A DNA stretch of 64,000 nt, from the NCBI RefSeq assembly GCF_036588685.1, contig NC_086381.1, positions 25,358,001 to 25,422,000 of the forward strand. The letters are read 5' to 3'. The position numbers and the translations under genes were made by a program. Under the pieces are notes generated by a model that had not been told where the DNA came from, searched no databases, and was given only the letters and a program-made list of their open reading frames with translations. The DNA is from Mytilus trossulus (lineage: Eukaryota). Below, piece by piece: positions 29,501-58,939 of the stretch (positions are counted from its first letter, which is position 1; every line of letters starts with the position of its first letter).

Positions 29501-32500
29501 AATAACGCAGATTCAACAATTCTGATACACTAAAAACATATATTTCCCAATAAACACGCACCAATGGTACGTTGTGTAAAAACGATTATATACACAAAAT
29601 AACTTATTATACGCATCCTGTAATAACTCATCGGCTCTTCCTTCCAGATTTGTGGGCCTAATTTCTTTTCAACATCCTCAAAAACATATTTCACTAATTG
29701 AGAATCTGTTGTAGAATCTACACCAGTAATCGAGTGCACCCCTCTATACTATAGTATGCAGATACATACAGGACTAGACAAAGCAATATCGTTTCTGAAC
29801 ACCTGGAAAAAACATATGAAATAACATAAATTTAAATTGATATGTGGTTCCTTCCAAGTTTTCAAATAGTTCATCAATACAATACATTATACACCAATAA
29901 AATGAAAAATTACAATAAAGCATATGCAATAAAAATTACCCCAATACATGAAAACTATCACCAAGTTAATACTAGTTAATTTAAGTCACCCTAAACTCCA
30001 TTCTAATAGCCAACACCGTAAATGGTAAATCCATATACCAAAAGCCGATTTATTCCCTCTACCAAATAAAAAATTAGCTTTGTTAGTAGGTAATGTAAAC
30101 CCAACACCTGATCAATAAATATATCTCCTTTGGGACATAAAAACGGCCAGTAAAACGCCGATCTCCACAAAGGTAAAATAAAAGTTCTATATGCCTTGTA
30201 CATGTATACATAAGGACTTTCAATAATAGGCAAACTGGGGGAACATACCACCCATTTATACCTTCTGATCAATTAATCTATCTTCTTTGGGACATAAAAA
30301 CGGCCAGTAAAACGCCGATCTCCACAAAGGTAAAATAATAGTTCTATATGCCTTGTACATGTATACATAAGGACTTTCAATAATAGGCAAACTGGGTGAG
30401 CATACCACCCATTTATACCTTTTGATAAATTATTCTATCTCCTTTGATATATAAAAACGGCTAATAATACGCCGATCTCCTCAAATGGTAAAATAATAGT
30501 AAAATATGCCTTCCACTGCTGCATGTATACATAAGGACTTTCAATAATAGGCAAACTGTGGGAACATACCACCCATTTAATAACCTTGCCAATAGATAGT
30601 GAACGCATCAATAAACATGAATGTACATTCCAATACCTGTAGTAAAATACAGGTAATCGATGGTTATGATCACTAACAAACCAATTAATTTCATGAGGAC
30701 CCAAACAGGGAATCCAAATATTCAAAATTATGTACTGCAAAACGGCAGTCATCAGTATTTATGATACGACTTATATAGTCTGCAATTTTATCTATGCCCT
30801 AGGTATCCATTCAACCTCTAAGAACAAGACTTAATTGTGCTTCTAACAAGTCACAAAAATGACATACGCAATATCTGCAAATAAGGCTTCATACTGCCCT
30901 TATATAAACAATAACAAAAAGTTTTGGTTATCCGTAAACCATCAATGCGTTTATCTCTCATAAAATCCGTCCAAGAAGCCATCTATATTTAACAGCCGTA
31001 AGTTCTTCCAAATAGAACTATGGTATACATCGTATTCATGACACATACCTTGAGCAATAATCTTACTGAACTGAAAGTCCAATATTAGATTCATATAGGC
31101 TGATATAACATCAAAACTAATGATTCAATCATAGTATAGCCACATTCCTATGACATATATACGAAATGGATATAATTTGACCAACGGAAGCTACAGTTCT
31201 CCCATTAAATTAACCTCAATATTCTGAAGATAGTTTAACTTGTTTTATGGTATCAAACAGTTATGAGTCTCTCAACCGGTTATGCTTATGATAACTTTGT
31301 CTGTATCAATGAAATACTTTAGTAACCAAATATGTCAATGTATAACTGGGAGACCATGTGGATACAACCACTTTGATCAATAAGTTCTTGTCTAACTCAG
31401 GTGGCAAACTCTGTACACACGTTTATATCAGAATCGGTGACAAATCCATAAATCTATATACATAAAATTTAAATTTCTTATCATTCACATCAATTTAATT
31501 AGTGGTCACGTAACTTCAGTAAATATATATTAAGCAAAACTTCATCCCAAAAAGGAGAACGAGAATACAAATATATATGAACTTCCATCCAAGGATTAGT
31601 AGTCTTAACTATTATACCTCGTCATATGTTCAGTAAAAACCAAGATGATCAGAATGCAGATCGTATATATGCCTATCTGGCGATAAGCTGAATGTTAAAC
31701 GTAAAACAATAAAAATATGTTTAATTAGATTGCATATCTACCAAGATATCTTCAAATTTCACAAAGGTGTTTTCCATAGATGTAAATGACATGACCTACA
31801 ATATATATCTAAAATTAAAACTTTAATTACCATTGCTTAGAACAGAGGTAGCAAGTGGTGGCAAGTGAATAAGCAAACCAATGGTTTACATCAGTACATC
31901 CAATAATAAGTCCTCTAAACAAAAAGATCTTCAATAGTTTATAAAACAAGATCACTGTATGTAATAGCAGAATAATGTTTTGTAAACAAACGGACAGCCG
32001 TGTAGTACAATTTAATAAAAGAGTATTTATAAGCGTGTAAAATGGTATCGGTATTTAAATTGTCGGTAATGAAATCATGAAAACCAATGTTATATCAAAA
32101 ATCAATATATCTCTATAATCTATCTCTGACGATAATTTTAGACTGACCTTGTTCATATTCAATGTAGTCGTGTGTGAGAAAAGTGTGCACTCGATTGACT
32201 ACTAATATAAATATTTAAATACTCATCTTATATAAATAATTCCTGATTTGGACCATAGACTGCTTTCGAGTTGAATAGGCATCTATTCCTCAAATATTGG
32301 TTATCCACAACCATAGCAGGCTCCTTCCTGAAACTTTAAGACTGACTTCCTCTCATGCTGGACATGTTGCAATATAACGGGAAAACGGCATATACAACCG
32401 GGATGAGGTTCTCGAAAGGGCTGCTGTTGAAACTTTAATTGTTGTTTACTAGTGTTGAAAATGTCCTGTTGTGAAAAACCATGCAGGAGATTCCTCAAGT

Positions 32501-35500
32501 AAAAGAGAATCTGGGTTCATTGTCAAATTCAAGATAGGCAGCGTACCAAGAAAATTCGACTGCTCAGATTGACGATGTCGTGCTGAATGATAACATAGGC
32601 AATAAAATACCGCGAAAATAATTTTGAAGCGGGAAAACATTACGCCCTCTATGCTACATATGATGAAACACCCAGGAGAAATTAATTTCACTCTAATGCA
32701 CTGCCCGTTTAAACGAATGAAATTATAATTCCTGTAACTACCGCCGCTAGGTTACAGCGTTATGCTATTTTTCTCTCTGGATTTACATACAACATCGAAT
32801 ACAAAAATACAAAGAAACACAATAATGCAGACGCATTATCGCGACTACCGATGCAAAGTGACATGAACATTAACAGTGAAGACGCAGATGATCTTTTTCA
32901 CGTGTTACAAATTGAGGACCTTCCAATTACGAGCGCCGAAATTCAACGTGAAACTCGAAAAGAAAAGGTATTAGCATCAGTTTTGTACCAAGCAATGAAT
33001 GGATGGGAAATAACGGACGATTCGTTAATAAAACCTTATTTCACTCGCAGAAATGAATTAACTGTTAGTCATGGTTGCCTTCTGTGGGGAATAAGAGTCA
33101 TAATTCCGATTAAATTCAGGAATCGAATTCTAGAATTACTTCATAGTAGTCACCCGGGAATGGTGAAAATGAAGGCGTTGGCCAGAGGGCATGTCTGGTG
33201 GCCCGGTATAGACAGTGACATTGAACATTTAGTCAAAAGCTGCACTGGATGCCAGATAAATCAGCACGCACCAGCACTAACACCGTTACACCCATGGGAA
33301 TGGCCCGAGACACCATGGCAACGAGTCCATATAGACTACGCAGGACCGTTTATAAACAGAATGTTTTTTGTTATGGTGGACGCGCATAGCAAGTGGCCTG
33401 AGGTTTTCGAAATGAAATCGATTACAGCAACAAAAACAATTGACATTATGAGACAAGTATTTGCTAGAAATGGAGTACCTGCTCATATTGTATCGGATAA
33501 TGGACCAAGTTTTGCATCCGCAGAATTCGCAGAATTCTTGAGACAAAATGGAATAAAACACACGAAGTCAGCACCCTATCATCCAGCAACAAATGGACTT
33601 ATTGAGAGATTTATTCAAACATTTAAACAGTCAATGAAAGCAATGAAATGGGAATCTGGTGATGTAAACAAAAAGATCGCAAACTTCTTGCTGACGTATC
33701 GCCAGACACCACACACTAGCACCCACGAAACACCATCAAAACTGTTTCTAGGAAGGGACTTAAGATCTAGACTTCATTTGTTAAAACCAAACTTACGAAA
33801 CACCGTTAGAGTGAGCCAGGAAAAATCTTGCGAAATAAGAATGAATAAGAAGGATAGACAATTTGAAGTAGGCGAAAGAGTTATTGCAAAGGACTATAGA
33901 GGAAAAGATCCGTGGGTAGCAGGAATTATAAGCGAGCGTGAAGGACCACTCATGTATAAAGTTTCAACCGACAACGGACACACATGGAGAAGGCATACAG
34001 AACAATTAAAGTCTACTCAAATGCCAAAATCGTATGAACAATCAATCGAAAACGATAACATTATAGTTGACAATACGGAGACACGCACACAACAACATGT
34101 GGCCGAAAAATCACCGGAACAAACCAAAAACAATGAAATGTCAATGCCGCGACGAAATCCAATAAGAGAACGAAATCCACCAAAAAGATTAATTGCCGAA
34201 ATGGAATAGTCAGTGTGCATAAATAGGACTTTTATGGTTACACATTATGAGGCATAATAACCCTCGTGTAATCATAATCAGACCAGGGTCTGATCTTGCA
34301 TGATATTGAGAAAATATTGTAAACTGCATGACCTATCTTTCTATCTATACTCTTTATATTTGTTTTCAATTTGCTAGGTCAATTTTCATTCATAATTCTT
34401 ATCACGCGAACACGTGATCACACGTTTGGAATTAGCAGGGAGGAACTATAGTGTTTTGACATTTTATGTGACTGTTTATTTTATCTTCTATTATAAATCA
34501 CCGGATTATAAATACTACGCAGTTTTTAACCTACAGCAGAGAATCTGACATTGTAAACAATAAGGCAATTAAATATCATTTGGTTTCTATCTTTCATACT
34601 TTTCTATGTATGTATCTATGAAATAGTTCAGTTTAATAAAATGTAGTTATAGAAGCAGTCACGTTTATTTAGTATAGTTGTGTTATATATATAAGAACCC
34701 AAATGCAGTTATAAATACACAACAAAGGAATTAATAGCAAATACACAACACTTGTATAGATAATTATAAATGCAAACATGCAATACAAATTAAAAAAAAA
34801 TAAAAAATATAGGAAGACCAATTTAAATTTCCTTCATCTTTAATTAATATCGTTGCAGTGGTAACATCAGAAAACTGGACACATTGTGTAAAATCATCTC
34901 TATGTTATCATCTTTACTGTTAAGAAATGCATTTAGTATTTGTTTTAAACATCTGTTTGTTATTATCTGCCCCTTTAATGCCTTTATCAGACTTAGATGA
35001 CATATTTACAGTTCAATTTTATAATAGAGAGAGATGATATGATATTCTCTCTGAAGGGCTGTAACTGTGAAAAGTTTAAAAAAAAAGTATGAAATTGTTT
35101 ATTGTGTAAAACATAGCTAAATATAAGGTAAAAGTCAGAGAAATCCCTTTCCCGCCATTTTTTAAACATCAAATATCTCGAAAAGGAGTTCCATAACCCC
35201 TATCACTATTTTCAGCTTATTTTGTTCTTTACTAATGTTCTAATGATTTATTGTATCAATTTTAAATTGTAGATTTTCTTTAAAAAAAAAATTATCAAAG
35301 CACAATTCATTTTCTATTCATTACTATCTTCACAAGCAGAGTATGTTAAAGGTTTCTTTTATTTATATTATACATTTGATCTTACTTTCACAGGTTTTTG
35401 CTACAGAAGCTAGCCATGTATTACTAGGGAAAGATGCAGCTGTAAAATGTGAAGTGAGTGAGTTTTTTATCCACAAACTTAATTTAATCAATGTGAATTA

Positions 35501-35501: not shown

Positions 35502-36588
35502 ACTGGTCAAATTATGTCAATTTCACTAGCTAGACTCATAATTACATATACCCACTCTTTTATCAAAAGAGAGCTTTTAATTTTGGTAAACTGAGCACAC
35601 ATTCTTGGTAACTTTTGTCCAAGATATTTTACTAGACAGTCTTATGTTGTAACTTGTTCAATCAGAACTTATATGTGCATTCACCTTTAATTGTGTCTAC
35701 TGTGTAACATAAAAAAAAATATCAATTAAAATAAATTAGCTTAATTGCTATTGTTTAATCTTTATTGACTTCATTGCCATTTGGCACCTTTATAATATTC
35801 TAGATAATGTAATCGAACTTCAAACCTTTCTTAAGTTTTATCATACTATAGTATCACAACATTATAATAATTATATGAAATTAAACAGACCTAAAAATGT
35901 AAAAAGAAAATCTTCAAATTTTTGTTACCTTTATAAACAGATATGAAATAAACAGATATGAAATTTATGCATATTAAATTACAAAAACAAAATACTCTTT
36001 CATGCTTTTTTTATCAAATTTTACTACTTTCCAGGATAAGGTTTTGTCATTTGCTAATGATAATGAGAAATTATTAAATCTTTTATGTGTAAAATTATGT
36101 GTATTTTTGCACAAATACAATGCCATTCATAGGATGCAGAAATTATCACTGTAGCACCTGTGTTATGTTATCTTTACTGAACAACATTACAATCCTTATT
36201 TAAAAATGATTGTTGACATCCATTTAAAGTTTTATGTTGTTTTTATCTCAACAGTAGTTGTGTGTAAACATTTTCAATTTTCAATTTGAGGGCTGTGTAA
36301 CAGTTTTGCAACTAATATTGTCATCTAGAAATATGGCATCTCACTTTGTCTCTGCTACTTTAATAAATACACAAAACTACAGTGTTCTTCTGCCTATCAT
36401 AGATGTTTTTTCTTTTAAAGATTGATATTTGGGCTTTTAAAATTCATTCCATATTCCCTGCAGTGGAAAGGTGACAAAATTATTAAATAACAGCTGAGCC
36501 TGAGTGATTCACTGATAAAGAGATGAATTAATTTAATGAATTACTAAGTGTGTTTAGATAAATTACACAAACAAATATAATTTCAGAA

Positions 36589-38059
36589 ATGGAAGGTAGA
36601 TTGCCCAAGACAAACCACCTGTGTCATCTATATGATGATTTGGCAGTCAAATATAGAGTTAGAAATACCAATATGCCTGAAGAAAAAGAAGGTGGAAAAG
36701 ATGCTACAAAAAGGTATTGTTAATTTCAAGAACTAATTAAATTGAAAAGGGATGGGTTATTTACCTTAAGCAAGTTTTTTAATTATTTAATTATTTGTTA
36801 ATATTTAATTTAATTTTAATTAATAAATCAAGATTTATTCTATTCAGTTGCGATCAAGAACTATTTATAAAAAAGGAAGAAAGGGTATGGTTGAAGCATG
36901 AACACAATGCTATATATTAGATAGACATTGGGATATTGACTGGTCTTTAATAATTTAATTGAACATGCATTACACAGGTAAATAAATTTTGGTCTTTCAT
37001 TTATTGAGATAGTCAATGAAACAAGTTTTACTTATTTTATTGAATAATTACAATATTAAACTGTGCAAGGCCTTCACCGATAGTCAGGGACTTCAACATT
37101 CCCATCTTTGTCTAATCAATTTATACAATGTTTAAGTTAAAGGGCCTATTTACCGTACATAGAGTCAATGAGAGAAAGATGATTAAATCTTTGACATACA
37201 CATCTTTTACATTTATACAGTTAATTTCATCTTTTAAATCTACACAGTTAACTTCATCTCATAAACATTTGACATGTGTAAACAATATTTAGAAATAGCA
37301 ACTAAATCTGATCTGATATGTAGATTTCATATATCTTGCATTATTAATATCATTCTTAGTTATATTGCTGCATACCATGATTTTATTGACATTTTTTTTA
37401 ACAAGCTCTTGAAAAAGTTTTATCCATGGGGTTGGCACAGTTTAGTGAAAAAAAATAAATAATAAAAATTGTTGCTTTCTCATCTGAAACCCCACTTTTT
37501 TGTTGTTTGATGAAATTTTTTTAAATTTGGCATAATTAATATTTTGTACAAAAGTCATTTTTCTTTTCCATAATTGTTCAGTATTTGTATATTGTAGCAT
37601 TGGAAAAAGATCTCTTGATACAGACTCAGAGATTAAAGAACTGAAAGATCAAGTAAAGAGATTAAAGAGACGGGTAGAAAAACTAGAAGAAAAGCGTCCT
37701 TCTTCGAGTAAAGCAGGAAATGACACAACAAATTGTTCTGAAATGTCCGATCCAATTAAGTACAATGGATTTACATTAAACGAGCTAAAACTAAGCATAG
37801 AACATGTGGAATCATGTCAACCCGCCATTGATATTTTATTGAGGAAGATGTTTACCTCGGAAGAAATAACATCACAATCTGTTACAGGAAAAAAACTTCT
37901 AAATGTTCATTTGCTGGTCCAAGGCCACCAATGGACCAAACAAAACTTCATGTTATGAGTGACATCTTGGGGGCTAAGTTTCAAGAAAAATTCTCGAGAA
38001 AACTAATGGTGGAAAAAAATCAGAACGTACAAAAGGTGTTGAGAAAAAAAAATTGTTAA
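36589..38059 (+). pseudogene. BEN-domain gene 2 (coiled coil plus BEN), two exons, one frameshift
   Basis: Exon 36589-36713 joins exon 37598-38059 in phase 2: EIKELKDQVKRLKRRVEKLEE (coiled coil), AIDILLRKMFTSEEITSQSVTGKK, a shift in the A run at ~37890, then GPRPPMDQTKLHVMSDIL...MVEKNQNVQKVLRKK. Confidence 0.7.
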
Positions 38060-38214
38060 GAAAGTTGACTTTCAGTTCATTAAAACTGTAATTGAATTGA
38101 GATTTTGTTGCATCTTATCCTTCCTGCCATGAAAATGCAGAGATAAAGGTTAAAATACAGTGTTTTCAGCTTGTCCTGGAGGATATTCCATCCATTTAAA
38201 ACACCCATTTTTCT

Positions 38215-38696
38215 CCCTCTCAGACAGTTATGTATAATTCATGAATAGTCATGAACATTTCATGAACTGTTCATGAACAGATTTCATGAATGGTTCATCA
38301 TATCTTCATGAACATTTGATGAACAATTCATGAACTGAAAATCGACAGTAATGTTCATGAACTTTAATGTTCATGAACAATTCATGAACAAGAAAGGTTC
38401 ATGAACATTTAAGTGTTCATGAACTTCAATGTTCATGAACAATTTATGAACAATTCATGAACAAGAAAGGGTTCATGATCATTGTTGTTCATGAACATTT
38501 AAATGCTCATGAACCTTTCTTGTTCATGAATTGTTCATGAACATTAAAGTTCATGAACATTACTGTCGATTTTCAGTTCATGAATTGCTCATCAAATGTT
38601 CATGAAGATATGATGAATTGTTCATGAAATCTGTTCATGAACAGTTCATGAAATGTTCATGCATATTCATGAATTATTCATTATCATCTCACAGGG
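38215..38696. mobile_element. Fold-back element with CCC...GGG termini built from GTTCATGAAC palindromes (CMC/EnSpm-like, non-autonomous)
   Basis: The left ~210 bp is the reverse complement of the right ~210 bp. Ends ccctctcagacagttatgtataattcatgaat and (reverse complement) ccctgtgagatgataatgaataattcatgaat align without gaps. Confidence 0.75.
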
Positions 38697-40102
38697 GTGA
38701 CGCAGAAACCCTTTGTGATGCAGTTTTGCACAATCTTGGACAGGAATGGGGTTTTGAATTGACGAAGTTGAGGGGACAGGGCTATGATGGCTGTGCTACA
38801 ATGACTGGTGCGATATCTGGAGTTCAGAAAAGAATTCAAGATGCATGGCTGGAGGCGAAATATTTCGTACATTGCAATTCACATCGTCTTAATTTGGTGA
38901 TAGTCAACACTTGTAATAAAGTTGTTGAAGCTAGAAATGCACTAACCATACTTGGTAAGATAACATGGTTCATATGTGGCGTGAGCAAACGGAAAGCCAT
39001 TTTAATGAAAGAGGTCAAACAAGGAAACAAAGATTTAGATTTCGATTTACTCTATGACAATGAAGATGCCCTGTTTGAAGCTGCAATGAGACAGACCATG
39101 ATGCCGAAACTATCAGAGACTAGATGGACGTCTAGGGTAGACACATTGTCTTGGCTTTTGGCTCACTATAAGTCTCTACTAAATGTGCTTGAAAATGTAC
39201 AGTCAAATTCTAAAGGTCAGGCTGCAGCCGATGCTTCTTCATATCATGCAGTGCTACTTAAATTTGATTTCATCCTTGTAACAGTAATGTTACAATACAC
39301 CCTAGGCTATATCAGACCGTTGTCCATTCTGCTTCAGTCTGAGGCTTGTGATCTAGTAAAAGCTCATCAGGAGGCTAGAGATCTTCTGGTAATATTTCAA
39401 GGAATAAGGTCGGATTCCGATGCTAAGTTTCACGATATTTACGAGAGGAGCGCATCAATCGCAACTGAAAATGATGTGGTACCAACAAAACCAAGAAGCA
39501 CGCAACGGCAAAGGCACAGAGCAAATGCTCCAGTCGAAAGTATCGAAGAGCATTTTCGTGTTAACTACTTTCTACCGTTTATTGATCATATCATTTCACA
39601 TTTGGATTCGAGATTCCCGGAAGAGCTGAAGGCAATTTTCTATGGAAACTACCTTGTGCCATCGCTTGTAGGAAAAATAAAAGAAGAGGTGGTCACTTCA
39701 ATGAAACAAGAATACTCGGTAGACTTGCCATACCGAAATGATTTTACGCAAGAAGTTCATAGATGGGTGGCAAAATGTCATAGAGACAACTTGTCGTTAG
39801 TAACGACGCTAACAGGTGCAATTTTGTATGCTGACCCTGAGTTATATCCAAATATCCATTTGGTATTAAAGTTGCTACTTACACTGCCGTTCGGCTCGTG
39901 TTCGTGCGAGAGATCTTTCTCTGCTCTCCGACGGTTGAAGACGTGGTGCAGAGCTACAATGACGGAAGATCGGCTATGTGGATTAGCATTGCTGCATGTT
40001 CACTGGAATGACGCTGTAGGGCAAGTTAGAGCTGAATCAGTACTTAGAAGATGGGATTTATTAGGAAACAGGAAGATTCACCTTGCATTTACGGCTGATT
40101 AA
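38697..40102 (+). pseudogene. hAT transposase, C-terminal ~465 aa (ZMYM1/THAP12-like, Tip100 group), 5'-truncated
   Basis: LRGQGYDG, HCNSHRLNL, SETRWTSR and dimerisation motif CERSFSALRRLKTW.R.TM.EDRL.GLALL. The frame is open; the listed N-terminus comes from the fold-back element. Confidence 0.92.
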
Positions 40103-40599
40103 ATTTAAACAAAACATTTTCCAAAAACCAAAATTGTATGTTTTTATCAAGGATTTGAATATAAGAAGATGTGGTATGAGTTCCAATGAGATGACTGTTA
40201 CTATCCATCCAAGTCACAGTGTATTTGAAGTTTACAATTAAATGTTTAAGTACGGTCTTCAACACAGAGCCTAATCACATCCCGAACAGCAATCTCAGTC
40301 TTTTTTTTTTGGCATAAATATTGCTTACAGGTTTAAGCATTACAAATGAGTCTTAAAGTAAGGAAAACGGGTCATATTAAGCCATTTTATTGAGAGGAAA
40401 AAATCGGCGGTCACAATGTATTTGTTGGTAGAAATTATAAGTCAAAGTACGGTCTTCAACACGGAGCCTTAGCTGAACCCAAACAGCAATCTCAGTTTGT
40501 TTAATTATGCATAAAAATTGCTTCCAAATTCAAGCAATACTAATGATTCTCAAAGTAAGGGAAATTGAAAGAAAACGGGTAGTTTTTACCCATTTTACT

Positions 40600-40711
40600 C
40601 GAAAAAAAATCGGCCGGGGGCTGCGCCCTGCGATCCCCCCTTCATGGGGGCCTCAAACCGCGGCCCTCAAACCCCTGCCTCCCCTAAAATCGAAGCCCAG
40701 TTACGGCCCTG
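40600..40711 (+). mobile_element. hAT right end
   Basis: GC-rich subterminal region ending TTACGGCCCTG (reverse complement CAGGGCCGTAA, a typical hAT TIR start); left end not seen. Confidence 0.65.
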
Positions 40712-41510
40712 ATAGCACTCAATTGATTTTCGAGCTATAGCGGGCCAAAGTTTACAAAGAACTTCAATTTTTTTATTTCTCATCAGAAGGGACTTAATTG
40801 TTTCTTTGGATTCCTCTTGACTTAAAAATTGAGCTTCTGGATGAGTGCAGATAGTTTTTGTAAAGCTATTACTGTTTTCAAGCTTTAAGCTGCCAAAGGG
40901 GGTCATATAACCGCACGTTTTTAAAGTACCACATTTTAATTTTAATTATTTTTTTTACATCTTTGGTGTACGACCAACATTATATATTATGTATCAATGA
41001 TTACCAGCACTTTAAATGTACATGTATTCAAAATGCTGCGGTCATATCATGCCCAATGGTGCAGCTGTTCATTTTGTAATGCTTGCAGATATTCATTTCA
41101 TTTAGACAATTTTTGGTATGCAAGTCTACCAGGATGACTTACAGATCAAGCTTGCATTTTGTACATCTTTGACTATTTTTGATGGCATAATAAACCTTGT
41201 TCAACCGGTAGGGGACTATGTATTTCTGTGCAATACGATCCACACGTTCATACATTTTGTGTATTTTGATTTGAATTTTGAATGCGCTACCTACCAAAAA
41301 TCTGGGGCCATCCAGAGTTGTGCCTGGTCATAGTAAGAACTTTCGGTTTTATGGCGGTCAAAGTCGAAAAATTGATAAAAAAATAATTCAAAAATCATAC
41401 ATGAATGGAATATTATATAGGATGAAATTTGGTATGAAAGTGAGTAACAAATATAGAAAATTGCACTTCCAGCTGGCGTCCATTACACACAATAACATTT
41501 TCTTTTTCAG

Positions 41511-41629
41511 GTGAAATATTTAGCAGATTCCTGAAGGAAATCTCCATTGAAGACAAGACCAAGGAATGGGGGAAAATTACTGTTATTATGAACGACAAAA
41601 TTAGAAAACTAAGAAAACAATTAGACTAG
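41511..41629 (+). pseudogene. BEN unit 3: orphan terminal exon
   Basis: tttcag acceptor, then EIFSRFLKEISIEDKTKEWGKITVIMNDKIRKLRKQLD*. Similar to the last exon of BEN unit 4 (WTKLTININDKIRGLK), both phase 1. Confidence 0.6.
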
Positions 41630-41687
41630 AATGAGTGTATTTATATGTAGATGTATATTTTTTAGAATGAGTGTATTTAGATGTACA

Positions 41688-42170
41688 TTTTTTTAAGCTC
41701 ACCTGTCCTAAAAGAACAGGTGAACTTTTCCATCACTTGGCATCCTTTGTTAACTTGTTCAAAAAACTTCTATTCTGAAACGGCTGGGTAGATTGGATTG
41801 AACTTAATAGGAATGATGTTTGACATGTCCTCTTCAAACGATTCTCATTTTATATTGATCCGATGAAAAACATATCTGCGGTTGCTATAAATAGAACATA
41901 AGGGTAAATTGCTGTTTTTGGCTAATAACTCAAAAACCATTACAGATATCGAAAAACTGACATAGGGTAAACGTGATCAGCATGCCAAGATCTACCATAC
42001 AATTTTCAAGAAAATTCCGAAACCCATCTTGGAATTATTGCCCTTTGTCAAATTTTCAAAATTTTAACCTTTTTGGTCTTTATTTCCAAAACAATCAAAG
42101 ACAGCTGGTTAAGTTTAAATTGCAAAAATGTTCAGTATGTCAAGATCTACCTACTTTGCAATTGTAGAAA
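41688..42170 (+). mobile_element. Old, diverged HINE-like fragment
   Basis: Starts tttttaagctcacctgtcc...caggtgaacttttccatcacttggc, resembling the 5' end of the 14507 and 47351 elements. Confidence 0.55.
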
Positions 42171-42186
42171 ACAATAGGGGCATCCT

Positions 42187-42332
42187 CAGGGGTTTTCTTC
42201 AGAGCAAGGGATGACGGAGATCCCTCTCAATTAATGCCCCTTCAAAAATGGTGTATTCTTTAATACAATTTAAGAACAAGGTGGGCTTGTGATTATATCC
42301 CCATCTGAACAAATTTTCTGAAGAAAACGCTG
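42187..42332. mobile_element. 146-bp MITE with 5-bp flanking duplication
   Basis: TIRs CAGGGGTTTTCTTCAGA / TCTGAAGAAAACGCTG, flanked by ATCCT on both sides. Confidence 0.6.
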
Positions 42333-42604
42333 ATCCTATGTCTCATAACTTTTTAGTTTTTTATTTAAATTGGAATTTTCATGCAGTATAATTTTTATAG
42401 TGTGGATATTATAATTGCTTCATTATATTTGTACTTTTAGTAGAAATGAATTTTTTATAGTGAAGATTAAAGAATGATCATACCACAAAGATTTATGGTT
42501 GTTTTTGTTAAACTGTGAGTTAGCATGATGCATGATTTACTGAAACCCTAATTTCCAAAACAAGTACTGTGACCGCAAATTATTCAATACAACAATTTTT
42601 TATT

Positions 42605-42985
42605 GGAATTCCACTGGAGAGAAATTGTCTGGCATTCCACTGATCTACTGGAATTCCACTGATTGACCAGTGATAATTCCAGTGGAATCTACTGGAATTC
42701 CATTGATTTACCAGTGATAATTCCAGTGGAATCTACTGAAATTCCACTGATTTACCAGTGAAGATTCCAGTAGATCAGTGGAATGCCAGAGAAAATACCA
42801 CTGGAATTCCACTGGAACTTGTTGCATTCCACTGGAGTTACCACTGGTAAATCAGTGGAATGCCAGACATTTTTTACCGCTGGATTCCACTGGAATTCCA
42901 CTGGAATCCAGTGGTTAATCCACTGATTTTGCCAGTGGCTTTCCAGTGGAATTCCACTGGAATTTTGTCATCTTTTTCTATTGGG
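42605..42985 (+). repeat. Palindromic CCAGTGGAATTCCACTGG array ending ...CTATTGGG (putative transposon right end)
   Basis: Dense CCACTG/CAGTGG motifs in both orientations; ends abruptly at GGG inside an exon of BEN unit 4. Confidence 0.65.
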
Positions 42986-44765
42986 TAACAACTAAAGGAT
43001 CAGAGGAAGAAATTGTTGATGACAGTGCTGATGGTAATTAGGAAATGACAGTTGTAGCTTGATTCCTATAAGATTGATTGAAGCAGAGATAGACTTATTT
43101 CAATAGCATAAAGTTAAATGAGAATTTATAACACATTATAATAATTTATAATTTATAATTTGGTTTTGGATTATTTGTCCTTTTTGTAGAAAAATTGAAT
43201 TGGAATAATTAGTTACTTGAGCTTCTTCTGATTAATCCTTGGTATATATGTTAGGTCTTGATGACATATGTTAGGTCTTGATGACATATGTTATAAAATC
43301 TTAACTTGGTCAGGGATTGTCTGCCTATAATTAAGTCATTTTATATTGTATTTATAGATTAATGATATTTTTTTCTATTGTACAGGATCAATACTGCAAA
43401 CCCATTACAACAAAGATGATGATTTATCAAGTGCTGGAGAAGAAGGTAAGAATTAATTTCCTTTGAATACAGATTTCTGTAATAGCTAAGGGCTATTCCA
43501 GAAAATCATGTAGTGGGGAGGGGGGAAGGCAGGTACTTTTATTAGAATTTGATGGGTGGTTGTTATTTTAGAAAGATTGCCTGAACAATTTAAGGAAATA
43601 CCCAATTAAAAATTTATGCATGATGGAGTAAAAAAAAAGCCTTCCTTCACCCCATACATTTATTTCTGGATTAGCCCTAAATATATACAATTGTGCAATT
43701 AATTAAAAAATACATCCTAAAAGCAAATCACTGGAATTTTTTTTTCTGTTGTGCAATAAAATTGCTGGTTAGCGACTAGTCTTCAAGGAGCTTTTTTTTA
43801 TATCTACCATATATGATATATTTATTTAAAATTATTTATGTACCCCTTTAAAAATTCAATTTAATGCATCAGATGATATAAACAGAAATATTATAGCCAA
43901 TCAGAAAATTTATATGTCCAAAATATCCTGTACATGCATGCACATTCATTATGTACTATCTCATCAAAGAGAACTTTTTATTTACAGAACTGGCCTATGT
44001 TGGAGCAGCAAAATACAATGTGAAATTAGAAAAGGTTATTCTCAAAAGAATAATTAAAACATCTAAAACACCAGAAAAACTGGCCCTCAACCTTATAGCG
44101 CCACTTTTATCAGAGTATGAGATCAACAACTGCACTCTATATGGCAATCAGCAACATAAGAAGGAAGCAGTTGCTGAAAACAAAAGGAGAGCTATAAGAT
44201 GTAAGATTGACATAACAAATAGTCTCATTAAAATGTTCAAAACTAATGGAATGTACATGCGTGCATTTCGGATCAGTCATGACAATCGATGAGTTGAATG
44301 TTTTTGCAAAGAATGTTTTAGGTTGGAATCAACATTGCATGACTAGCAAGGTCACAATGGATGATAGAAAATATGTTTTGGGGTATAACTTCTTAACAAT
44401 TACCTCAAATTTCAACCAAATTAGTTGTGAATAGATTTCAGGGTTTATCAAATTAACTTTGAAACACTATTATTACATGTTAAAAAAATAGGGCAAACTC
44501 AAAAGTATATGGAAAGGATCAGATTCTGAAAAGATTTAATATGTTCCAGAAGAGATTGGGAATGCATATAGGCAAATTAAAAGAAAATATAGCTTACTGC
44601 ATCCATGTTTAGTTTTTTGTTTTTCTTTTAACAGCTGCTGTGTTTGATAAATTTGGAGGAGAAAAAGAACAGAATGAACAACTATGGACAAAGCTGACCA
44701 TCAATATAAACGATAAAATTAGAGGTTTAAAGAATGGCAAATATAAAAAAACAGTGAAATATTAG
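42986..44765 (+). CDS. BEN-domain gene 4 (acidic linker plus BEN), 5'-truncated, frame intact
   Basis: Phase-1 exons ..43033, 43386-43445, 43988-44200 and 44635-44765 splice to ...KTPEKLALNLIAPLLSEYEINNCTLYGNQQHKKEAVAENKRRAIRSAVFDKF...LWTKLTININDKIRGLK. Confidence 0.75.
43490..43677. mobile_element. PIF/Harbinger-like MITE in an intron
   Basis: TIRs GGGCTATTCCAGAAA / TTTCTGGATTAGCCC with a TAA TSD. Confidence 0.8.
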
Positions 44766-45544
44766 ATGTGATAGACCAGCTGTCTTAAACAAACTGTATC
44801 TTCAATTCTTGATTATATCTAGGACGAGTTTGAATTAGTGCAGGAAACTGTATTTTATTGAAGAGTGAAGTCCCTTGAAAACATTAAAAAAATGATTTCC
44901 AAAATATCTTGACTAACTATGTTTGACCTACATCATTTTCATTTATAATAACAAATGCAGGTTAACTTAGGTACTTATGGTGTAAAGTAATCATGTACCT
45001 CTTCACAACATGATAAATATTTTTAAGATAGTTTCAAAGTAACATTTTGATTTAAGGGTGACTACGAAATTAAGCCATTGATTTCTGTATATCATCATTT
45101 TTATATAACAATTATAATATACACATGAAAGAAGTAAATATGACACTGTTATATATATATTCATACAAATATAACCATTCAATGCTGCATTTTATTTGTG
45201 TGATGTAAAGATTATAATTTTTTAACCTAAAAAATTTAAGGAAAAGGATAATTGTAAAATAAACTTGTTTTTGAATTCCCTTGATTTAAAATGTATTATT
45301 TGTATATATATATATGTATGCTGATTTTGTTGATTCAAATATTGTATATTTAATAAATATTTTTCATTTTTTACAGTTGTTTACATCTTAGTAGTCCATA
45401 TTAAGATGTTGCAAAGTAATAGTTATTGATATTAAACTCTGGGCTAATCTGTGAGTACAAAAGCATGTGCATGACTTGCATTTCCAAAAAAAAGACAATA
45501 AACTATATTTAAGACATGAAAAAATAACGTGATTGATCTGCTGT

Positions 45545-45942
45545 TTTCACTGGAATTTAAAATAATTTCACTACACATAGTGTTGAAGAATCCATTTAAA
45601 TTTCTCTGGTTTTGCATTAAAATCCCACTGGAATTATTGAAATTTCATTGGGATCCCATTGAAATTTCAGTGGAAATTGCCCAGAATCACACTGGGATTT
45701 TAAAAATATCACTGAGATTCCACTGGAATCCAAGTGGGATTTTTGAAAAAATATAACTGAGATTCCACTGGAATCCAAGTGGGATTTTAAAAAATATCAC
45801 TGAGATTCCACTGAGATTTCACTGGAATCTTCTAAAAATCCCGACAAAATTGTCCAGTGGAATTCCAGTGGGAACCAGTGGAATTCCCAAGTGAGATTCA
45901 TGTGGGATTTCAGTGGAATTCCACTGATTATTTTTAGTAGGG
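45545..45942 (+). repeat. CCACTG(G/A)GATT / GGAATTCC array ending ...TTAGTAGGG (putative transposon right end)
   Basis: Same core motif as 42605-42985, includes a 45-bp tandem duplication, ends at GGG. Confidence 0.65.
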
Positions 45943-45995
45943 TTAGTAATAAGATATGTTTAAACTAAACCTTAATTTTGCTTATATCCTTGTAG

Positions 45996-46383
45996 AAAGA
46001 CTTACAAAGCTAGAGGAGGATAATACTAAATTAAAGAAAAAAAACAAAAAAATGGAAGAGAAATTGGATTCCTTGGAAAAAAAGTATTATCTGTATTACA
46101 TGTATCTTCTGAAACCAAGATGCCTGAGGCTGTGCCGGAGAAAAGGGAAAGAACAGTACCTGAGAAAACAGAGATAAAGAAAACAGAGACAACAAAGACT
46201 GAAAGTACCGAGGAAGAGACAAATAACCCTATGAATGAAATAACAATTGACAAGTTAGACAAAAGTGTGAAGGGGTTTATAGGGGAAAATTATATTTTCA
46301 AACATTTTTGTTTCAAAATATTTTCTTTGGAAGAACTTAGGAATTGTACAAGAACCGGTATATCAAAGCCTGAAAGGCTGTAA
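45996..46383 (+). pseudogene. BEN unit 5: coiled coil plus truncated BEN
   Basis: ttgtag acceptor; RLTKLEEDNTKLKKKNKKMEEKLDSLE, a frameshift in an A run, then ...FKHFCFKIFSLEELRNCTRTG. Confidence 0.6.
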
Positions 46384-47350
46384 AAGCAATTGCTGCCATG
46401 TTTATGTTTTGGGGACTTTTTTTCATCCACATATATTTAAGAATTAAACATGACAGGAGTGACAGGAGTCTAGTGAGAATTAAGAAGGTTTTAACTTTAT
46501 ATCAATTAAAGACTTTAGCAGAAAGTCATTTTTAATATGTTTTATATTTCACAAGGAGACAACACGTTTACCAGGTGCTAAAGTTGGGGTCAAATATACA
46601 TGTGCTGAAACATATAACTCCAAGAGAAATTATTATGGATTATCCCCTAGTAGTGTTTGTAACTGGCAATAATTTCCTTTATTGATTTAATTTTCATAAT
46701 TAATTTAAATTTAACTCTTCAGTTAAAACATTTCAACTTTCCAGACGCAAATGTTGAAAAACGGGAAAGAAACAAAATATTTTACAAGACATAAACATGT
46801 AAAAAATATATATATATTTCAGCTGACTAAAAATATTTTCATAATGTTACTTTGTCATCATTTCTTAAAAACTAAGTCCCAAACATTATTGCTCAGTTGA
46901 TATGTGTCATCCTCATGCGGTACGAGATAACTATAATTCTCATGCAATCCCGAAAAGAGGGGCCATCACAGACAAACATGACATTAAATCGTCATTATAC
47001 GAACAAGAACAAACAGCTCTAAGTTGCTTGATATTTATCCAATTTTCAGGAAACCTTGTGAAAATGATCTTCAATATTTCGAAAACATGTGAAATAAAAT
47101 TGCAAACACGGTGGACCGTCAAGGGTCAACAAAGGTAGTAGTCCATTGGAAAGACGAGGATAATGGTTTCATCATTTGTCATGCATACCCAGTTTTGAAT
47201 ATGATATCCAAAAAGGATGTACTTTTTTTAATCTATGAAACTAGAAAATACCAAATTGTAAATATCTCTTCATCTGGACTAGGCATCTATCACGTTTGGA
47301 CGGGTCCATTTCATTAGTGAGGTGATCGATAAATCTTATGGAGTTATGAC

Positions 47351-49167
47351 AACTAGAGGCTCTAAAGAGCCTGTGTCGCTCACCTTGGTCTATGTGCATA
47401 TTAAACAAAGGACACAAATGGATTCATGACAAAATTGTATTTTGGTGATGGTGATGTGTTTGAAGTTCTTACTTTACTGAACGATTTTGCTTCTTACAAT
47501 TATATCTATCATGAACTTTGCCCATTAGTAACAGAGAACTATATTTGGTAAAAATTTACATAAATTTACCAAATTAATGAAAATTGTTAAAAATTGACTA
47601 TAAAGGGCAATAACTCCTTAAGGGGTCAATTGACCATTTAGGTCATGTTGACTTATTTGTAGATCTTACTTTGCTGAACATTATTGCTGTTTACAGTTTA
47701 TCGCTATCTATAATAGTATTCAAGATAACCAAAAACAGCAAAATTTCTTTAAAAATTACCAATTGGAGGGCAGCAACCCAACAACCAGTTGTCCAATTCA
47801 TCTGAAAAATTCAGGGCAGATAGATATTGACTTGATTAACAATTTAACTTCTTGTCAGATTTGCTCTAGATGCTTTGGTTTCATAGTTATAAGCAAAAAA
47901 CTGCATTTTACCCCTATGTTCTATTTTTAGCCGTGGCGGCCATCTTGGTTGAATGGCCAGGTCATCGGACACATTTTTCAAACTAGATACCCCAAAGATG
48001 ATTGTGGCCTAGTAGTTTCAGTGGAGATTTTGTAAAAGATTACTTAGGATTTATGAAAAATGGTTAAAGATTGACTATAAAGGGCAATAACTCCTAAAGG
48101 GGTCAACTGACCATTTTGGTCATGTTGACTTATTTGTAGATCTTACTTTGCTGAACATTATTGCTGTTTACAATTTATCTCTATCTATAATAATATTCAA
48201 GATAATAACCAAAAACAGCAAAATTTCCTCAAAATTACCAATTCAGGGGCAGCAACCCAACAACCGATTGACCGATTCATCTCAAAATTTCAGGGCAGAT
48301 AGTTCTTGACCTGATAAACATTTTTATCCCATGTCAGATTTCCTCAAAATGCTTTGGTTTTTGAGTTATAAGCCAAAAACTGCATTTTACCCCTATGTTC
48401 TATTTTTAGCGGTGGCGGCCATCTTGGTTGGTTGACCAGGTCACGCCACACATTTTTTAAACTAGATACCCCAAAGATGATTGTGGCCAAGTTTGGATTA
48501 ATTTGGCCAAGTAGTTTCAGAGGAGAAGATTTTTGTAAAAGATTACTTTAATTTACGAAAAATGGTTAAAAATTGACTATAAAGGGCAATAACTCATAAA
48601 CGGGTCAACTGACCATTTTGGTCATGTTGACTTATTTGTAGATCTTACTTTGCTGAACATTATTGCTGTTTACAGTTTATCTCTAACTATAATAATATTC
48701 AAGATAATAACCAAAAACAGCAAAATTTCTTCAAAATTACCAATTCAGGGGCAGCAACCCAACAACCGATTGACCGATTCATCTGAAAATTTCAGGGCAG
48801 ATAGATCTTGACCTGATAAACATTTTTACCCCATGTCAGATTTGCTCTAAATGCTTTGGTTTTTGAGTTTTAAGCCAAAAACTGCATTTTACCCCTATGT
48901 TCTATTTTTAGCCGTGGCAGCCATCTTGGTTGGTTGACCGGGTCACGCCACACATTTTTTAAACTAGATACCCCAATGATGATTGTGGCCAAGTTTGGTT
49001 TGATTTGGCCCAGTAGTTTCAGAGGAGAAGATTTTTGTAAAAGTTAACGACGACGGACGACGACGACGACGGACGACGGACGACGACGGACGACGACGGA
49101 CGACGGACGACGGACGCCAAGTGATGAGAAAAGCTCACTTGGCCCTTCGGGCCAGGTGAGCTAAAAA
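47351..49167 (-). mobile_element. HINE-like element, copy 2 (3 internal units)
   Basis: Near-identical to 14507-16782 but lacks one ~500-bp unit and has a longer GACG microsatellite. Confidence 0.85.
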
Positions 49168-50185
49168 AGGAAAACAAACTTATTGTTATGTGTTTTTAAC
49201 AAGGGTTTCGTTCCTCTAAATTATTTGCGCAAACAAATCAACAAAATAGGTCAGTTAACTTTGTCTAATTTCAGATTACAGGTAATCATTTGACACTACG
49301 TATAACCTGATAACCTGTCATGCCTGTGTAGTGATTTTGATTTTACGATAAATTTATGAATGAACGACAATTTTATGAATGAACAAGAGCACCTGACCTC
49401 TTTCTTAAAAAAATACCAATTAAACATATAAAACCGTATATTATAAAAGACAATTCAGTCAAATTTTCAATACTAAATCAACAACTGAAATGATTCCATA
49501 TTTTGTTGAAACATCGTACGAACGGAAAACGGAATCGCAGGTATAAAAATGCAGTTTTTTCACTCGGACGTCTATGTTTTTTGATAGTCAAACGGTTGTC
49601 CCCCTAAATACAAAAATACATCTACAAGAATGTATGCTGAAACTTCTTAAATCCACTAACGTTTTTCAAAAGTTTCAAGCTATGTATTGCATTAGAAAAC
49701 ATACATAGGTGTTTAAGAATGACAGACCAGGAGCCTGTTTAACAAAATACTATGGCTTGATCTGGGCGGAGTCTCTGATCTGGGTCACAAAGATGGCCAT
49801 ACGCGACGGCATGAAAGCAATTGCTTTAAAAAACCATCAAATGTCATGATGTAATAAAACCTGCACTAAACACGGAAAAGTTGGACATTAGCCAAACAAG
49901 TGTTATAAAACACACATCGTTTGTTAGAGCAACTTTTGTAAAAAAAAACTTGAGAATCTACAAAAGATCGTCGTCAGAAGCTACAAAATGGCAAAGAAGT
50001 GAACATTTTTTCAATATTTATAAAGTTTACTTAACATTAAAATGAAAATCATATGATTTTTTTGTTGTTAAATATATTAAATGTGGCTAGCTTTGCTATA
50101 AAGGGCCCCAAAATTGATTGATAACTTGTCAGATCTTTCTGAAATTTTCACGTTCCTGGTTTTATTTGGCTCTGAATTAAAATAT

Positions 50186-50440
50186 TGTTCTTGAACTTTA
50201 GACATGTGTCATAAGTTAAAGAATAAGTTCAAGAACTTGTGACATTAAAGTCAAGAATAAGTTCAAGAACTTATGTCGGAAGTTCAAGAATAAGTTGTGT
50301 TGTAAGTTCATGAACAAGTTCTTGAACTGGTTTCAACAGGTTCTTGAACTAGTTCAGGAACATTTAGTTCTTGAACTTGGAAGTGGGCCATTTAATGTTC
50401 TTGAACAATTTTAAGAACAGTTCTTGAATTCCTCGCAGGG
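50186..50440 (+). repeat. GTTCTTGAAC/GTTCAAGAAC array ending ...CCTCGCAGGG (putative transposon right end)
   Basis: About a dozen quasi-palindromic motifs; terminus resembles ...CTCACAGGG at 38696. Confidence 0.65.
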
Positions 50441-50641
50441 GATGGACACCAGCAGCCAGAGGCTGGCCATTTCAAGAATTAATAGAAAACCCCCTAGATG
50501 TAGGAACAAGTTTGCAGAGGCCGTAACAGCAATCTTGGCCAAAACCACACCTAAAAAAAAGTTGTCCCCGCGGAAACTTGGGTTTGAAGGAAAGTTTTCT
50601 GAAGAAATTGTAAAAAACATAGTAACAAGAAATCCCAAGGT

Positions 50642-52527
50642 AAACCAGATGCTCCGCAGGGCGTAGCTTTATACGACCGCAGAGGTTGAACCCTGAACGG
50701 TTGGGGCAAGTATGGACACAACATTCAAGCTGGATTCAGCTCTAAATTTGGATTGAGATTAAATAGTTGACACAGCATAGGTTTCTGACACAGAATGAAT
50801 GTGTTCTAATGAACTTAAAATTTTTGTTTTCTCTTAGAGCAATTCACTATGCTGTTGAATATTAATCCTCTCAAAAAAATGTTTGAAGAAATTTTCTTTT
50901 TATTTATGAAATTTCAAATGAGAAAAATTGAACCCAATTTTTTAATCACATCCCCTTTTCCCTTATTCCAAAACTAATCTCAATTAAAATATTCTAATGG
51001 AGTTTGCAACAATAACTACTCATTTAAATACATCATAAAATATTAAGATGTAAAAAAACTGCTTGTTATCACTGAATGGTAAAGATCATTTAAATTTATC
51101 AGTTGGTAGTAAAAAGTGAATATACATTGTATAGTGTATATAACAAAGATTTAAGTTGATTCTGGACAAAGAAAGATAACTCCAATTAAAAAAAATTCTT
51201 GCAATAAGATATTTCTTGCTTACTATTCTAGACAAAGAAAGATAACTCTAATTAAAAAAAAAATTTGCTATTTCACAATATTGTGAAATTAGATATTTCT
51301 TGCCATTGCACAATACTGTGCAATTGAAAAGACTTGCTATTGCACAATACTTAATATAATAATTTTAGATCCTGATTTGGACCAACTTGAAAACTGGGCC
51401 CATCTAAGTACATGTTTAGATTCAGCATATCAAAGAGGCCCAAGAATTTAATTTTTGTTAAAATCAAACTTAGTTTAATTATGGACCCTTTGGACCTTAA
51501 TGTAGGCCAATTTGAAAACGGGACCAAAAATGAAGAATCTACATACACAGTTAGATTTGGCATATCAACGAACCCCATTTAATCAATTTTTGATGAAATC
51601 AAATAAAGTTTAATTTTAGACCAACTTGAAAACTGGGCCAATAATCAAGAATCTAAGTACATTTTTAGATTCAACATATCAAAGAACCCAACCGATTCAT
51701 TTTTTGTCAAAATCAAACTAAGTTTAATTTTGGACCCTTTGGACCTTAATGAAGACCAATTTGAAAACATGACTAAAAGTTAAGAATCTACATACACAGT
51801 TAGATTCGGCATATCAAAGAACCCCAATTATTCAATTTTGATGAAATCAAACAAAGTTTAATTTTGAACCCTTTGGGACCCTTTTTTCCTAAACTGTTGG
51901 GACCAAAACTCCCAAAATCAATACCAACCTTCCTTTTATGGTCATAAACCTTGTGTTTAAATTTCATAGATTTCTATTTACTTATACTAACGTTATGGTG
52001 CGAAAACCAAGAAAAATGCTTATTTGGGTCCCTTTTTGGCCCCTAATTCCTAAACTGTTGGGACCTAAACTCCCAAAATCAATACCAACCTTCCTTTTGT
52101 GGTCATAAACATTGTGTTTAAATTTCATTGACTTCTATTTACTTAAACCAAAGTTATTGTGCGAAAACCAAGAATAATGCTTATTTGGGCCCTTTTTTGG
52201 CCCCTAATTCCTAAACTGTTGAAACCAAAACTCCCAAAATCAATCCCAACCTTTCTTTTGTGGTCATAAACCTTGTGTCAAAATTTCATAGATTTCTATT
52301 AACTTAAACTAAAGTTATAGTGCGAAAACCAAGAAAATGCTTATTTGGGCCCTTTTTGGCCCCTAATTCCTAAAATGTTGGGACCAAAACTCCCAAAATC
52401 AATACCAACCTTTCTTTTATGGTCATATACCTTGTGTTATAATTTCATAGATTTCTATTCACTTTTACTAAAGTTAGAGTGCGAAACTAAAAGTATTCTG
52501 ACGACGACGACGCCAACGTGATTGCAA
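50642..52527 (-). mobile_element. Second HINE/Helentron-like family with internal tandem repeats
   Basis: End aaccagatgctccgcagggcgtagctttatacgaccgca; tandem units at ~51370-51870 and ~165-bp units at 51880-52490; gacgacgac microsatellite. Related stub at ~54815-54948. Confidence 0.7.
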
Positions 52528-56582: not shown

Positions 56583-56763
56583 CATTAGTGTGTCTTGGAG
56601 ACCAAATAAGGAATAAAAATGAATGCAGCAGATTTGTCTCAATGTGGGGAGCACAGCCAGACAGCTGAAAAACTTGTTTTAAATCTGCTTGAGTATTTGG
56701 TTACAAAGGCAGACTGCCAAGACATGACTGTATATGGTCAACGAAAGAATAAAATGGAAATGG
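56583..56763 (+). pseudogene. BEN unit 6: exon paralogous to 43988-44200, cut by an LTR
   Basis: IKMNAADLSQCGEHSQTAEKLVLNLLEYLVTKADCQDMTVYGQRKNK aligns with VKLEKVILKRIIKTSKTPEKLALNLIAPLLSEYEINNCTLYGNQQHK. Confidence 0.65.
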
Positions 56764-58320: not shown

Positions 58321-58939
58321 AATTTTAATCAATTAAGAACACAGAAATAACAGTAAAGCCGCAAGCTGTACAAAAAATACAAAAAGAAATTGTAAAATAG
58401 TATTTGGGGTTATTTCAATTAAAACTAGCTTGTCATTTCACAACATTTTTTTGGCTATAGGAATACCCACCCTAAAATATTATTATAACCACTCTTTCTA
58501 CAAAATTTAAATGAATGATAATGTAAGATTTAGTTTTTTTGGCTTGAACAAATTACATAAATTAAACAATAGGATTACACTGGTGTCATTGAGTTTATCA
58601 TTGCATATTTTAAGTATGATATCTCAAGTGTATACTGTCGAAACTGTTATAACAGAAGTTTGAAAGTATATAATGTTCACATTTATATTCTCAACAATCT
58701 TTCTTATATGTTCTATAAAACCAGTATTATTCCTTACTGGTTTCAAGGCAAAAAAATTAAAGAGAAAAATCAGGAAATTTACTACTGTAAGAATGTATAT
58801 TGTGAGATTACAATTGTAAAATAAAAACTCATTTTGTTCACTGCAATATCTGCAATATAAAAAAATTTAAAAAAAATAAAAAAAATTTCAACTGACAGAA
58901 GTTTTAATCTGCATTTAACAATATTTTTGTAAATAAGAT

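Follow-up and report, generated by a model that had tools for sequence, protein, structure and literature searches.

In the CACTA/EnSpm-type transposons of plants, as described for maize En/Spm with its TnpA protein and for soybean Tgmt*/Tgm1 (PMC2613891), a short motif is repeated in both orientations under the element end, a second element-encoded DNA-binding protein is present and the motif differs between families; co-evolution of motif and binder has been proposed there for En/Spm and Tgm. TnpA-like proteins, which consist of tandem helix-turn-helix (HTH) domains, are reported only from flowering plants in a preprint (bioRxiv 10.64898/2026.08.24.746577), in the available text of which the word BEN occurs 0 times. 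The animal CACTA elements termed 'TRC', such as SmTRC1 of Schistosoma mansoni, have CCC termini (CCCTAG in Tribolium and CCCAG in Aedes), 2-bp target duplications and Transposase_21, plus a fast-evolving second protein predicted to be TnpA-like, for which the account in PMC1636069 names no BEN domain. Here we describe 64,000 nt of Mytilus trossulus DNA (RefSeq assembly GCF_036588685.1, contig NC_086381.1, positions 25,358,001 to 25,422,000 of the forward strand; hereafter the window), in which units 2-5 are BEN genes in a damaged state; behind each lies a motif array that ends in YWGGG. The locus raises the question of which protein reads the subterminal arrays of animal CACTA/EnSpm elements.

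The stretch is a pile of broken pieces, likely the right ends of cut-and-paste elements of the CACTA/EnSpm type. Our preferred reading, to which a probability of roughly 0.55 is given, is that the stack of BEN genes, arrays and GGG ends represents right halves of animal CACTA/EnSpm elements, whose BEN protein would bind the element's own array by analogy with TnpA. Every unit is damaged, with frameshifts in units 2 and 5 and missing 5′ parts in units 3, 4 and 5. The features are as follows:

36589-38059, plus strand: unit 2 gene, with putative short 5′ exons, then a coiled coil and a single-exon BEN of the QNVQK clade
about 37598-38059, plus strand: BEN domain of unit 2, one frameshift near 37895, helix LMVEKNQNVQKVLRKK
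38215-38696, plus strand: array A2, 23 TTCATGAA, whole-length foldback, ending in CTCACAGGG(G)
38698-40711, plus strand: 3′ part of a hAT element, abutting the A2 end directly; right end placed by eye
41511-41629, plus strand: unit 3, last BEN exon only, NDKIR clade, phase 1
42163-42985, plus strand: right-end block with A3, multi-copy, ending in CTATTGGG
42590-42985, plus strand: array A3, 14 CAGTGGAAT units
42986-44765, plus strand: unit 4 gene (LOC143051076), 5′-truncated by the A3 end, NDKIR clade, BANP-like
43988-44200 and 44635-44765, plus strand: BEN exons of unit 4
45474-45942, plus strand: right-end block with A4, multi-copy, 7 CAGTGGAAT units, ending in TAGTAGGG and joined into a unit 5 intron
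45540-45942: array A4, limits from the word scan
45998-46360, plus strand: unit 5, first half, coiled coil and BEN up to FSLEELRNCTRTG, frameshifted
46361-49827, no strand assigned: high-copy insertion that interrupts unit 5 and itself has a 502-bp-repeat element nested at about 47351-49167; limits approximate
49830-50002, plus strand: unit 5, second half, helix FVxKLENLQKIVVR, frameshift in an A run
50170-50440, plus strand: array A5, 9 TTCAAGAA/TTCTTGAA and 1 TTCATGAA, ending in CTCGCAGGG(G)
56584-56762, plus strand: unit 6, middle BEN exon, NDKIR clade, cut by sequence resembling a long terminal repeat (LTR)
61600-61830, plus strand: array A6, ACCATGGT motif, ending in TTTGCCAGGG(G)

Five arrays were located in the 64 kb by a word scan, with the 62,105 nt outside the arrays as background. 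The motif TTCATGAA is found 23 times in the 482-nt A2 versus twice in the background; CAGTGGAAT, in either orientation, is found 14 times in A3, seven times in A4 and 0 times outside, and ACCATGGT is likewise absent outside the arrays. The original prediction had placed palindrome arrays behind the BEN units: the arrays are indeed far above background, but the repeat of A3 and A4 is an asymmetric 9-mer (CAGTGGAAT), and 'palindromes' form where inverted copies meet. It had also given units 2 and 5 GTTC(A/T)TGAAC arrays; both have arrays of the form GTTC-WW-GAAC, yet the centre differs systematically, with 23 TTCATGAA and 0 TTCAAGAA/TTCTTGAA in A2 versus 1 and 9, respectively, in A5. The subterminal repeats are present in both orientations, as in CACTA/EnSpm elements. 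A2 is the only array that folds back over its whole length (231-nt arms, 91% identity; the other four do not), forming a near-perfect 482-nt hairpin (z=−32.7); its left edge reads CCCTCTCAG, with flanks CT and GT, and the hAT target is not continued on the left. This foldback suggests a recent inverted duplication, possibly the way in which MITEs (miniature inverted-repeat transposable elements) arise from one end.

A YWGGG end lies 12-26 nt past the last motif in all five arrays (product of chance values, 5e-8, for a pattern picked after the ends were seen). Read as right ends, the five are CCCTG, CCCAA, CCCTA, CCCTG and CCCTG, which are termini of the CMC type, CMCWR being the CACTA consensus cited in PMC3227409. 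The near-identical ends previously noted behind units 2 and 5 are present (CTCACAGGG at 38696 and CTCGCAGGG at 50440). The base after the array end falls in another element, namely in a hAT transposase open reading frame (ORF), a unit 4 exon and a unit 5 intron. Contigs from other mussel sequencing runs align from 38698 in 2 of 2 DNA runs, preceded there by 360 and 325 foreign letters; they start at 42986 in 4 of 4 runs and at 45943 in 3 of the 4 runs listed, and in two of these three, 97 and 46 foreign letters lie upstream. Moreover, over the blocks 42163-42655 and 45474-45722 the contigs are several times deeper than over the BEN exons in runs X2, X4 and X13, though not in X1 (in X4, 384.5 and 128.8 versus about 18-22; in X13, 64.3 and 27.6 versus about 9), where contig depth is not copy number. 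Outside the mussel, two metagenome loci (L049 and L118) are near-identical up to CTCGACAGGG and unrelated beyond, which marks CTCGACAGGG as a mobile end, and CCCTG ends are found on TTCATGAA arrays in metagenome loci L064, L094 and L119.

In other organisms, right ends are joined straight into a further array of the same motif, or CAGGG ends recur inside one array (L049, 1100-1586; L118, 740-1220; L019, 340-520), and in one run X4 contig an array of the A3 type is joined to one of the A2 type. These joins suggest that elements of this kind land in each other's ends. The stack fits nested insertion or deletion initiated at an end; L049 and L118 show the same end-into-array join.

The BEN proteins fall into two clades, NDKIR (BANP-like; units 3 and 4) and QNVQK (BEND6-like; units 2 and 5), which are separated with 99/99 support, under a long-branch warning, in a tree of 23 rows from which units 1 and 3 were left out as too short. 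The C-terminal helix and phase-1 last exon that units 3 and 4 had been said to share are both present: the last exons read WGKITVIMNDKIRKLR (unit 3, 41511-41629) and WTKLTININDKIRGLK (unit 4, 44635-44765), each after a phase-1 intron, the latter with the same splice in the NCBI model (P0001). The unit 4 exon is identical to LOC143051076 of Mytilus galloprovincialis. Unit 4 reaches an E value of just 0.076 with Pfam BEN, matches BANP by profile (E=5e-5) and has a predicted structure (pLDDT 85) that superposes on BANP (Z=14.0, root-mean-square deviation 2.6, 105 aligned). Its search returned 36 representatives, and those looked up include proteins of Mytilus coruscus, scallop, clam, abalone and crinoid. 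The residues NDKIR are common to ten full-length rows of the clade plus unit 3, the exception being unit 6, which is without that exon. In the other clade, the coiled coil and single-exon BEN claimed for units 2 and 5 were confirmed; BEND6 is closest (profile E=3e-5), and unit 2 matches Pfam BEN on its 3′ half (E=0.026) and the clade profile with E=7.8e-9. Unit 4 and the metagenome protein of L094 (BEND6, Z=10.9) have the BEN fold (PF10523) by structure, and units 2, 3, 5 and 6 are assigned to BEN by clade profiles. When the profiles of the two clades were compared, their helices were not aligned with each other.

Units 5 and 6 were re-examined. A multi-copy insertion of about 3.5 kb (46361-49827), which has AAAGCAATTGCT close to each of its edges, divides the BEN of unit 5; the second half of this BEN, including the helix FVxKLENLQKIVVR, lies at 49830-49996 (clade profile E=0.0036; tblastn E=0.008). 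With this half in place, the distance from stop to first motif in unit 5 (about 185 nt) is the same as in unit 2 (179 nt). Unit 6 belongs to the NDKIR clade on another branch than unit 4, grouping with P0009, P0012, P0014 and P0020; it is cut by the LTR-like start at about 56763, and its last exon was not found before the ACCATGGT array A6, so that its pairing with A6 is undefined. The caveat that a unit-4-like unit 6 precedes a different motif therefore falls away, and unit 6 was rejected as a counter-example, its link to the array being broken.

The pairing of clade and motif is repeated outside the mussel. A motif-led scan of metagenome contigs covered at least 121 loci (456,632 bases), to which a BEN profile with no QNVQK sequences in it was applied. 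Its best new match among the loci listed, L094, exceeds the cut-off with Pfam BEN (E=1.4e-7) and comprises a coiled coil, a BEN in one exon that ends in FVDKLQNVQKVLRR, an array of TTCATGAAC and, at its end, TTTCACAGGGG, that is, the QNVQK-TTCATGAAC-TCACAGGG layout. As predicted, the motif led to a BEN of the unit-2 clade. Between unit 2 and L094, 9 of 11 helix residues are identical versus 19 of 77 in the rest of the domain (binomial, 1e-4); the spacers are unrelated (alignment score 22; shuffle mean, 19.7), and the arrays score 177. Three other clade members have 9, 10 and 7 of 11 helix residues versus 22-23 of 74-77 elsewhere. The L094 array begins with an end-like CCCTCTGA.

Among the matches listed, 34 loci have seven or more TTCATGAA in 500 nt, eight of them with CCCTG/CAGGG close by; two of these eight (L031 and L036), GC-rich, were set aside as probable chance, and a weak BEN match in L064 (E=0.72) was rejected. 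A BEN of another clade was found in none of the listed metagenome loci, the remaining loci being short or non-coding. No confirmed relative emerged from NDKIR-led scans (22 viral, 150 metagenome and 69 prokaryote-genome pattern matches) or from QNVQK-led scans (110 and 76 pattern matches); the 18-mer of A3 hit 0 viral loci, and BEN was present in none of 20 CAGTGGAAT and 17 other viral loci. Given the null NDKIR, 18-mer and viral scans, the NDKIR-CAGTGGAAT pairing is without an outside replicate.

That the C-terminal helix reads bases in solved BEN complexes, as the original prediction had stated, is borne out by the published descriptions, in which helix 5 makes these contacts and its residues vary with the site (PMC11472053, PMC10206803). 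Known BEN sites are short words, such as CATG, CCAATTGG and YCCACGC (PMC11472053, PMC8887127). With the ends of the structural alignment taken as ungapped (sequence alignment agrees for BANP), D110, R113 and N117 of P0001 correspond to BANP 313, 316 and 320 and to NACC1 462, 465 and 469; in superposition D110 falls on BANP S313 and R113 on R316, and D110 also falls on NACC1 D462, which is described as contacting a C-A step (PMC11472053). In BEND3, E807 and R810 touch C-A-C at its first C and at the partner of its last C (PMC8887127), and R810 may be equivalent to BANP R316 by our own reading of PMC11472053. Since an acid and an Arg at i and i+3 read C-A-C in BEND3, the D110/R113 pair fits, post hoc, the CAC-rich A3 and A4 (CAC/GTG counts of this 3-mer, also post hoc: 22 in A3 and 23 in A4 versus 2 in A2, 4 in A5 and 2 in A6). 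In the QNVQK clade the structural register gives N133, K136 and R140; units 2, 5 and L094 keep N, K and K/R and have the half-site TTCA in common. As the predicted contact residues of units 2 and 5 are nearly equal and the motif centre differs, these residues do not explain the change of centre between A2 and A5. A Gln-to-Glu explanation of that shift was dropped, as it holds only in the HMMER register.

On the preferred reading, BEN and array would belong to one element, and the helix would be conserved because the motif is. Each unit would be the right half of an element that carried a transposase plus a BEN gene, and BEN oligomers, formed via the coiled coil or the array, might coat the ends and help pair them or control expression of the element; coiled coils are described as oligomerising BANP (PMC11472053). 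The pieces would have been stacked by nested insertion and/or by deletions starting at an end, and the left ends and transposases would be gone or upstream of the window. The candidate proteins have BEN domains rather than tandem HTH, so they may work like TnpA but are not TnpA members. A wider proposal, held more tentatively and at somewhat less than even odds, is that animal CACTA/EnSpm elements replaced TnpA with BEN, each family keeping its helix-motif pair (NDKIR/CAGTGGAAT and QNVQK/TTCATGAAC).

Several observations weigh against the preferred reading. A fourth G follows in 3 of the 5 ends, so that the exact edge is uncertain and the terminus may be CCCC rather than CMCWR. A left end matching an array was not found within the window, nor was a Transposase_21 gene by a Pfam scan of 17 window pieces; the superfamily is accordingly read from ends and arrays only. 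No complete element was found among the fetched loci, and with the 5′ halves of the elements missing here, the absence of Transposase_21 does not exclude CACTA/EnSpm. Among the matches listed, BEN was found in 1 of 121 metagenome loci and in 1 of the 6 listed loci with a convincing array and CCCTG end. The pairing table (QNVQK versus NDKIR, 3:0 against 0:2) gives P=0.1 in Fisher's test, and its five pairs, falling in two clades, amount to one phylogenetically independent contrast. At the predicted contact position equivalent to BANP R320, unit 3 has K and unit 4 has N, yet the two share a motif. The register of the QNVQK helix differs by 4 between HMMER and structure, although MAFFT and structure agree. 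The helix is also kept in host BEN proteins (NDKIR-like in P0031; EKLQNIQKVLRR in a bowfin protein), and A2, as a foldback, may be a closed MITE.

The main rival is still common descent, the caveat attached to the original prediction: CACTA/EnSpm-type elements would carry BEN, but the transposase's own DNA-binding domain would read the arrays, with BEN doing another, linked job (chromatin, anti-silencing or host targets). Like the arrays, the terminal 9-12 bases follow the clade (CCCTGYGA versus CCCWAYWAAAAA), as descent of whole elements predicts, and the pairs offer a single independent contrast. A TnpA-type HTH is usually fused to the transposase in animal Spm according to the preprint (bioRxiv 10.64898/2026.08.24.746577), which gives the arrays another candidate reader and is a further point against a BEN reader. 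The exchange at R320 under one motif, and the retained N/K/(K,R) of units 2 and 5 (structural register) under two motif centres, also agree with linkage. On the other hand, among elements that share the motif the helix is far more conserved than the rest of the domain, with the spacer unrelated; the words bound by known BEN domains are similarly short, and the D/R pair fits CAC. Descent alone is considered unlikely, albeit a serious contender; were it correct, the locus would be an ordinary pile of dead transposon halves. Of the proposed lock-and-key code, then, the co-variation is real and extends to L094, whereas the code itself is not shown, with one contrast and co-varying termini.

Alternatively, the arrays could be ends of independent, non-autonomous MITEs that inserted, by chance or target preference, downstream of BEN genes where transposons are clustered. 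In favour, contig depth is high over the array blocks but not over the BEN exons (X4 and X13, with no excess in X1), A2 forms a closed foldback whose inner edge is end-like, and L064 has a CCCTG end with two arrays and no BEN. Against it, CCC is absent where the deep blocks begin (42163 and 45474), which is expected of deletion derivatives that have just the parent's end in common; to the left of A2 there is no hAT sequence; in all four linked units the end is downstream and equally oriented, and the pairing recurs in L094. This account is very improbable. Least probable of all are host or domesticated BEN repressors, clustered like KRAB zinc-finger genes and silencing MITE families via the arrays: BEN exons do have low, near single-copy depth, a bowfin host protein carries the QNVQK domain and scallop, clam, abalone and crinoid have relatives with gene annotations, but truncation, frameshift or interruption affects every unit, an element end cuts each of them off, and RNA depth over the units is about 1 or less in both raw RNA runs (too low for splicing or strand).

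Under the preferred reading, in which BEN would read the array, the locus resembles En/Spm and Tgm in layout and differs from TnpA systems in its candidate binder (BEN) and CCC ends; SmTRC1 has the 2-bp duplication and Transposase_21, and here only right halves remain. The domains share with the host factors BANP, NACC1, BEND3, BEND6 and Insv, as described in PMC11472053, PMC10206803 and PMC8887127, the fold and, as predicted, a helix 5 in the major groove and coiled-coil oligomerisation, and the BANP-like clade has the short loop 1 and the BEND6-like clade the long loop 1 of such factors. Unlike these, they have the helix residues NDKIR and QNVQK and lie in mobile DNA beside dense arrays, the copies here being broken. 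In titles and abstracts no BEN domain was found described with transposon, transposase, EnSpm, CACTA or subterminal; Repbase lay outside that search and may list such genes. If BEN reads the arrays, the binder-motif co-evolution proposed for plants would become testable with a small, foldable domain, the contact residues of which crystal structures have revealed, and pairs carried by elements would allow sites to be predicted for BEN proteins not yet characterised. On the wider proposal, each element would state the binding site of its protein in its own ends and provide a training set for a BEN recognition code. The elements would also be a mobile source of host BEN genes, for example the bowfin QNVQK protein, and BEN-coated ends might draw related elements into each other, building stacks. 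The bowfin protein (P0049; Amia ocellicauda LOC136764542) has its QNVQK-clade BEN (EKLQNIQKVLRR) behind an unrelated N-terminal region, possibly through capture of a transposon BEN exon.

The hAT piece at 38698-40711 matches Pfam Dimer_Tnp_hAT (E=3.6e-6), and its 5′ part is absent within the 64-kb window. As candidates for the cognate transposase, the large, nearly intact ORFs at 16809-22580 were rejected: they have no Pfam match, and the 507-aa ORF is nearest to DUF6589 clusters (0.92, with low recognition). The ORF after it has a nuclease-like DxD...GGND pattern and may, as a guess, be an Academ-like transposase. Unit 1, a spliced BEN-like gene at 24676-24884, lies 3′ of these ORFs and is interrupted by a Gypsy element. 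Unit 7 (63053-63484), a BEN in a single exon, is degenerate and sits on a very long branch at the QNVQK side of the tree; neither its helix nor its end was found in the window.

Between 16809 and 63500 the plus strand holds nearly all coding transposon pieces (the large ORFs at 16809-22580, Gypsy at 25321-34724, hAT, the seven BEN units and gag-like pieces near 57100-60317), the minus strand having only a fragment at 9640-9984. Such a bias of coding pieces to one strand resembles a one-stranded PIWI-interacting RNA (piRNA) cluster. In RNA run X21, sparse reads over 36000-39500 are mostly first-mate-plus at a depth of about 1 or less, a weak hint. Tandem 357-nt repeats at 10182-12804 each have a small exon-like piece and are partly duplicated 1978 nt apart. 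The Gypsy pol region contains internal duplications (28127-28958 and 32544-32731) with 30-nt and 157-nt tandem arrays. Finally, a 76-codon open frame at 50441-50657, without a Pfam match, begins right at the A5 end and is probably the interior of another element.

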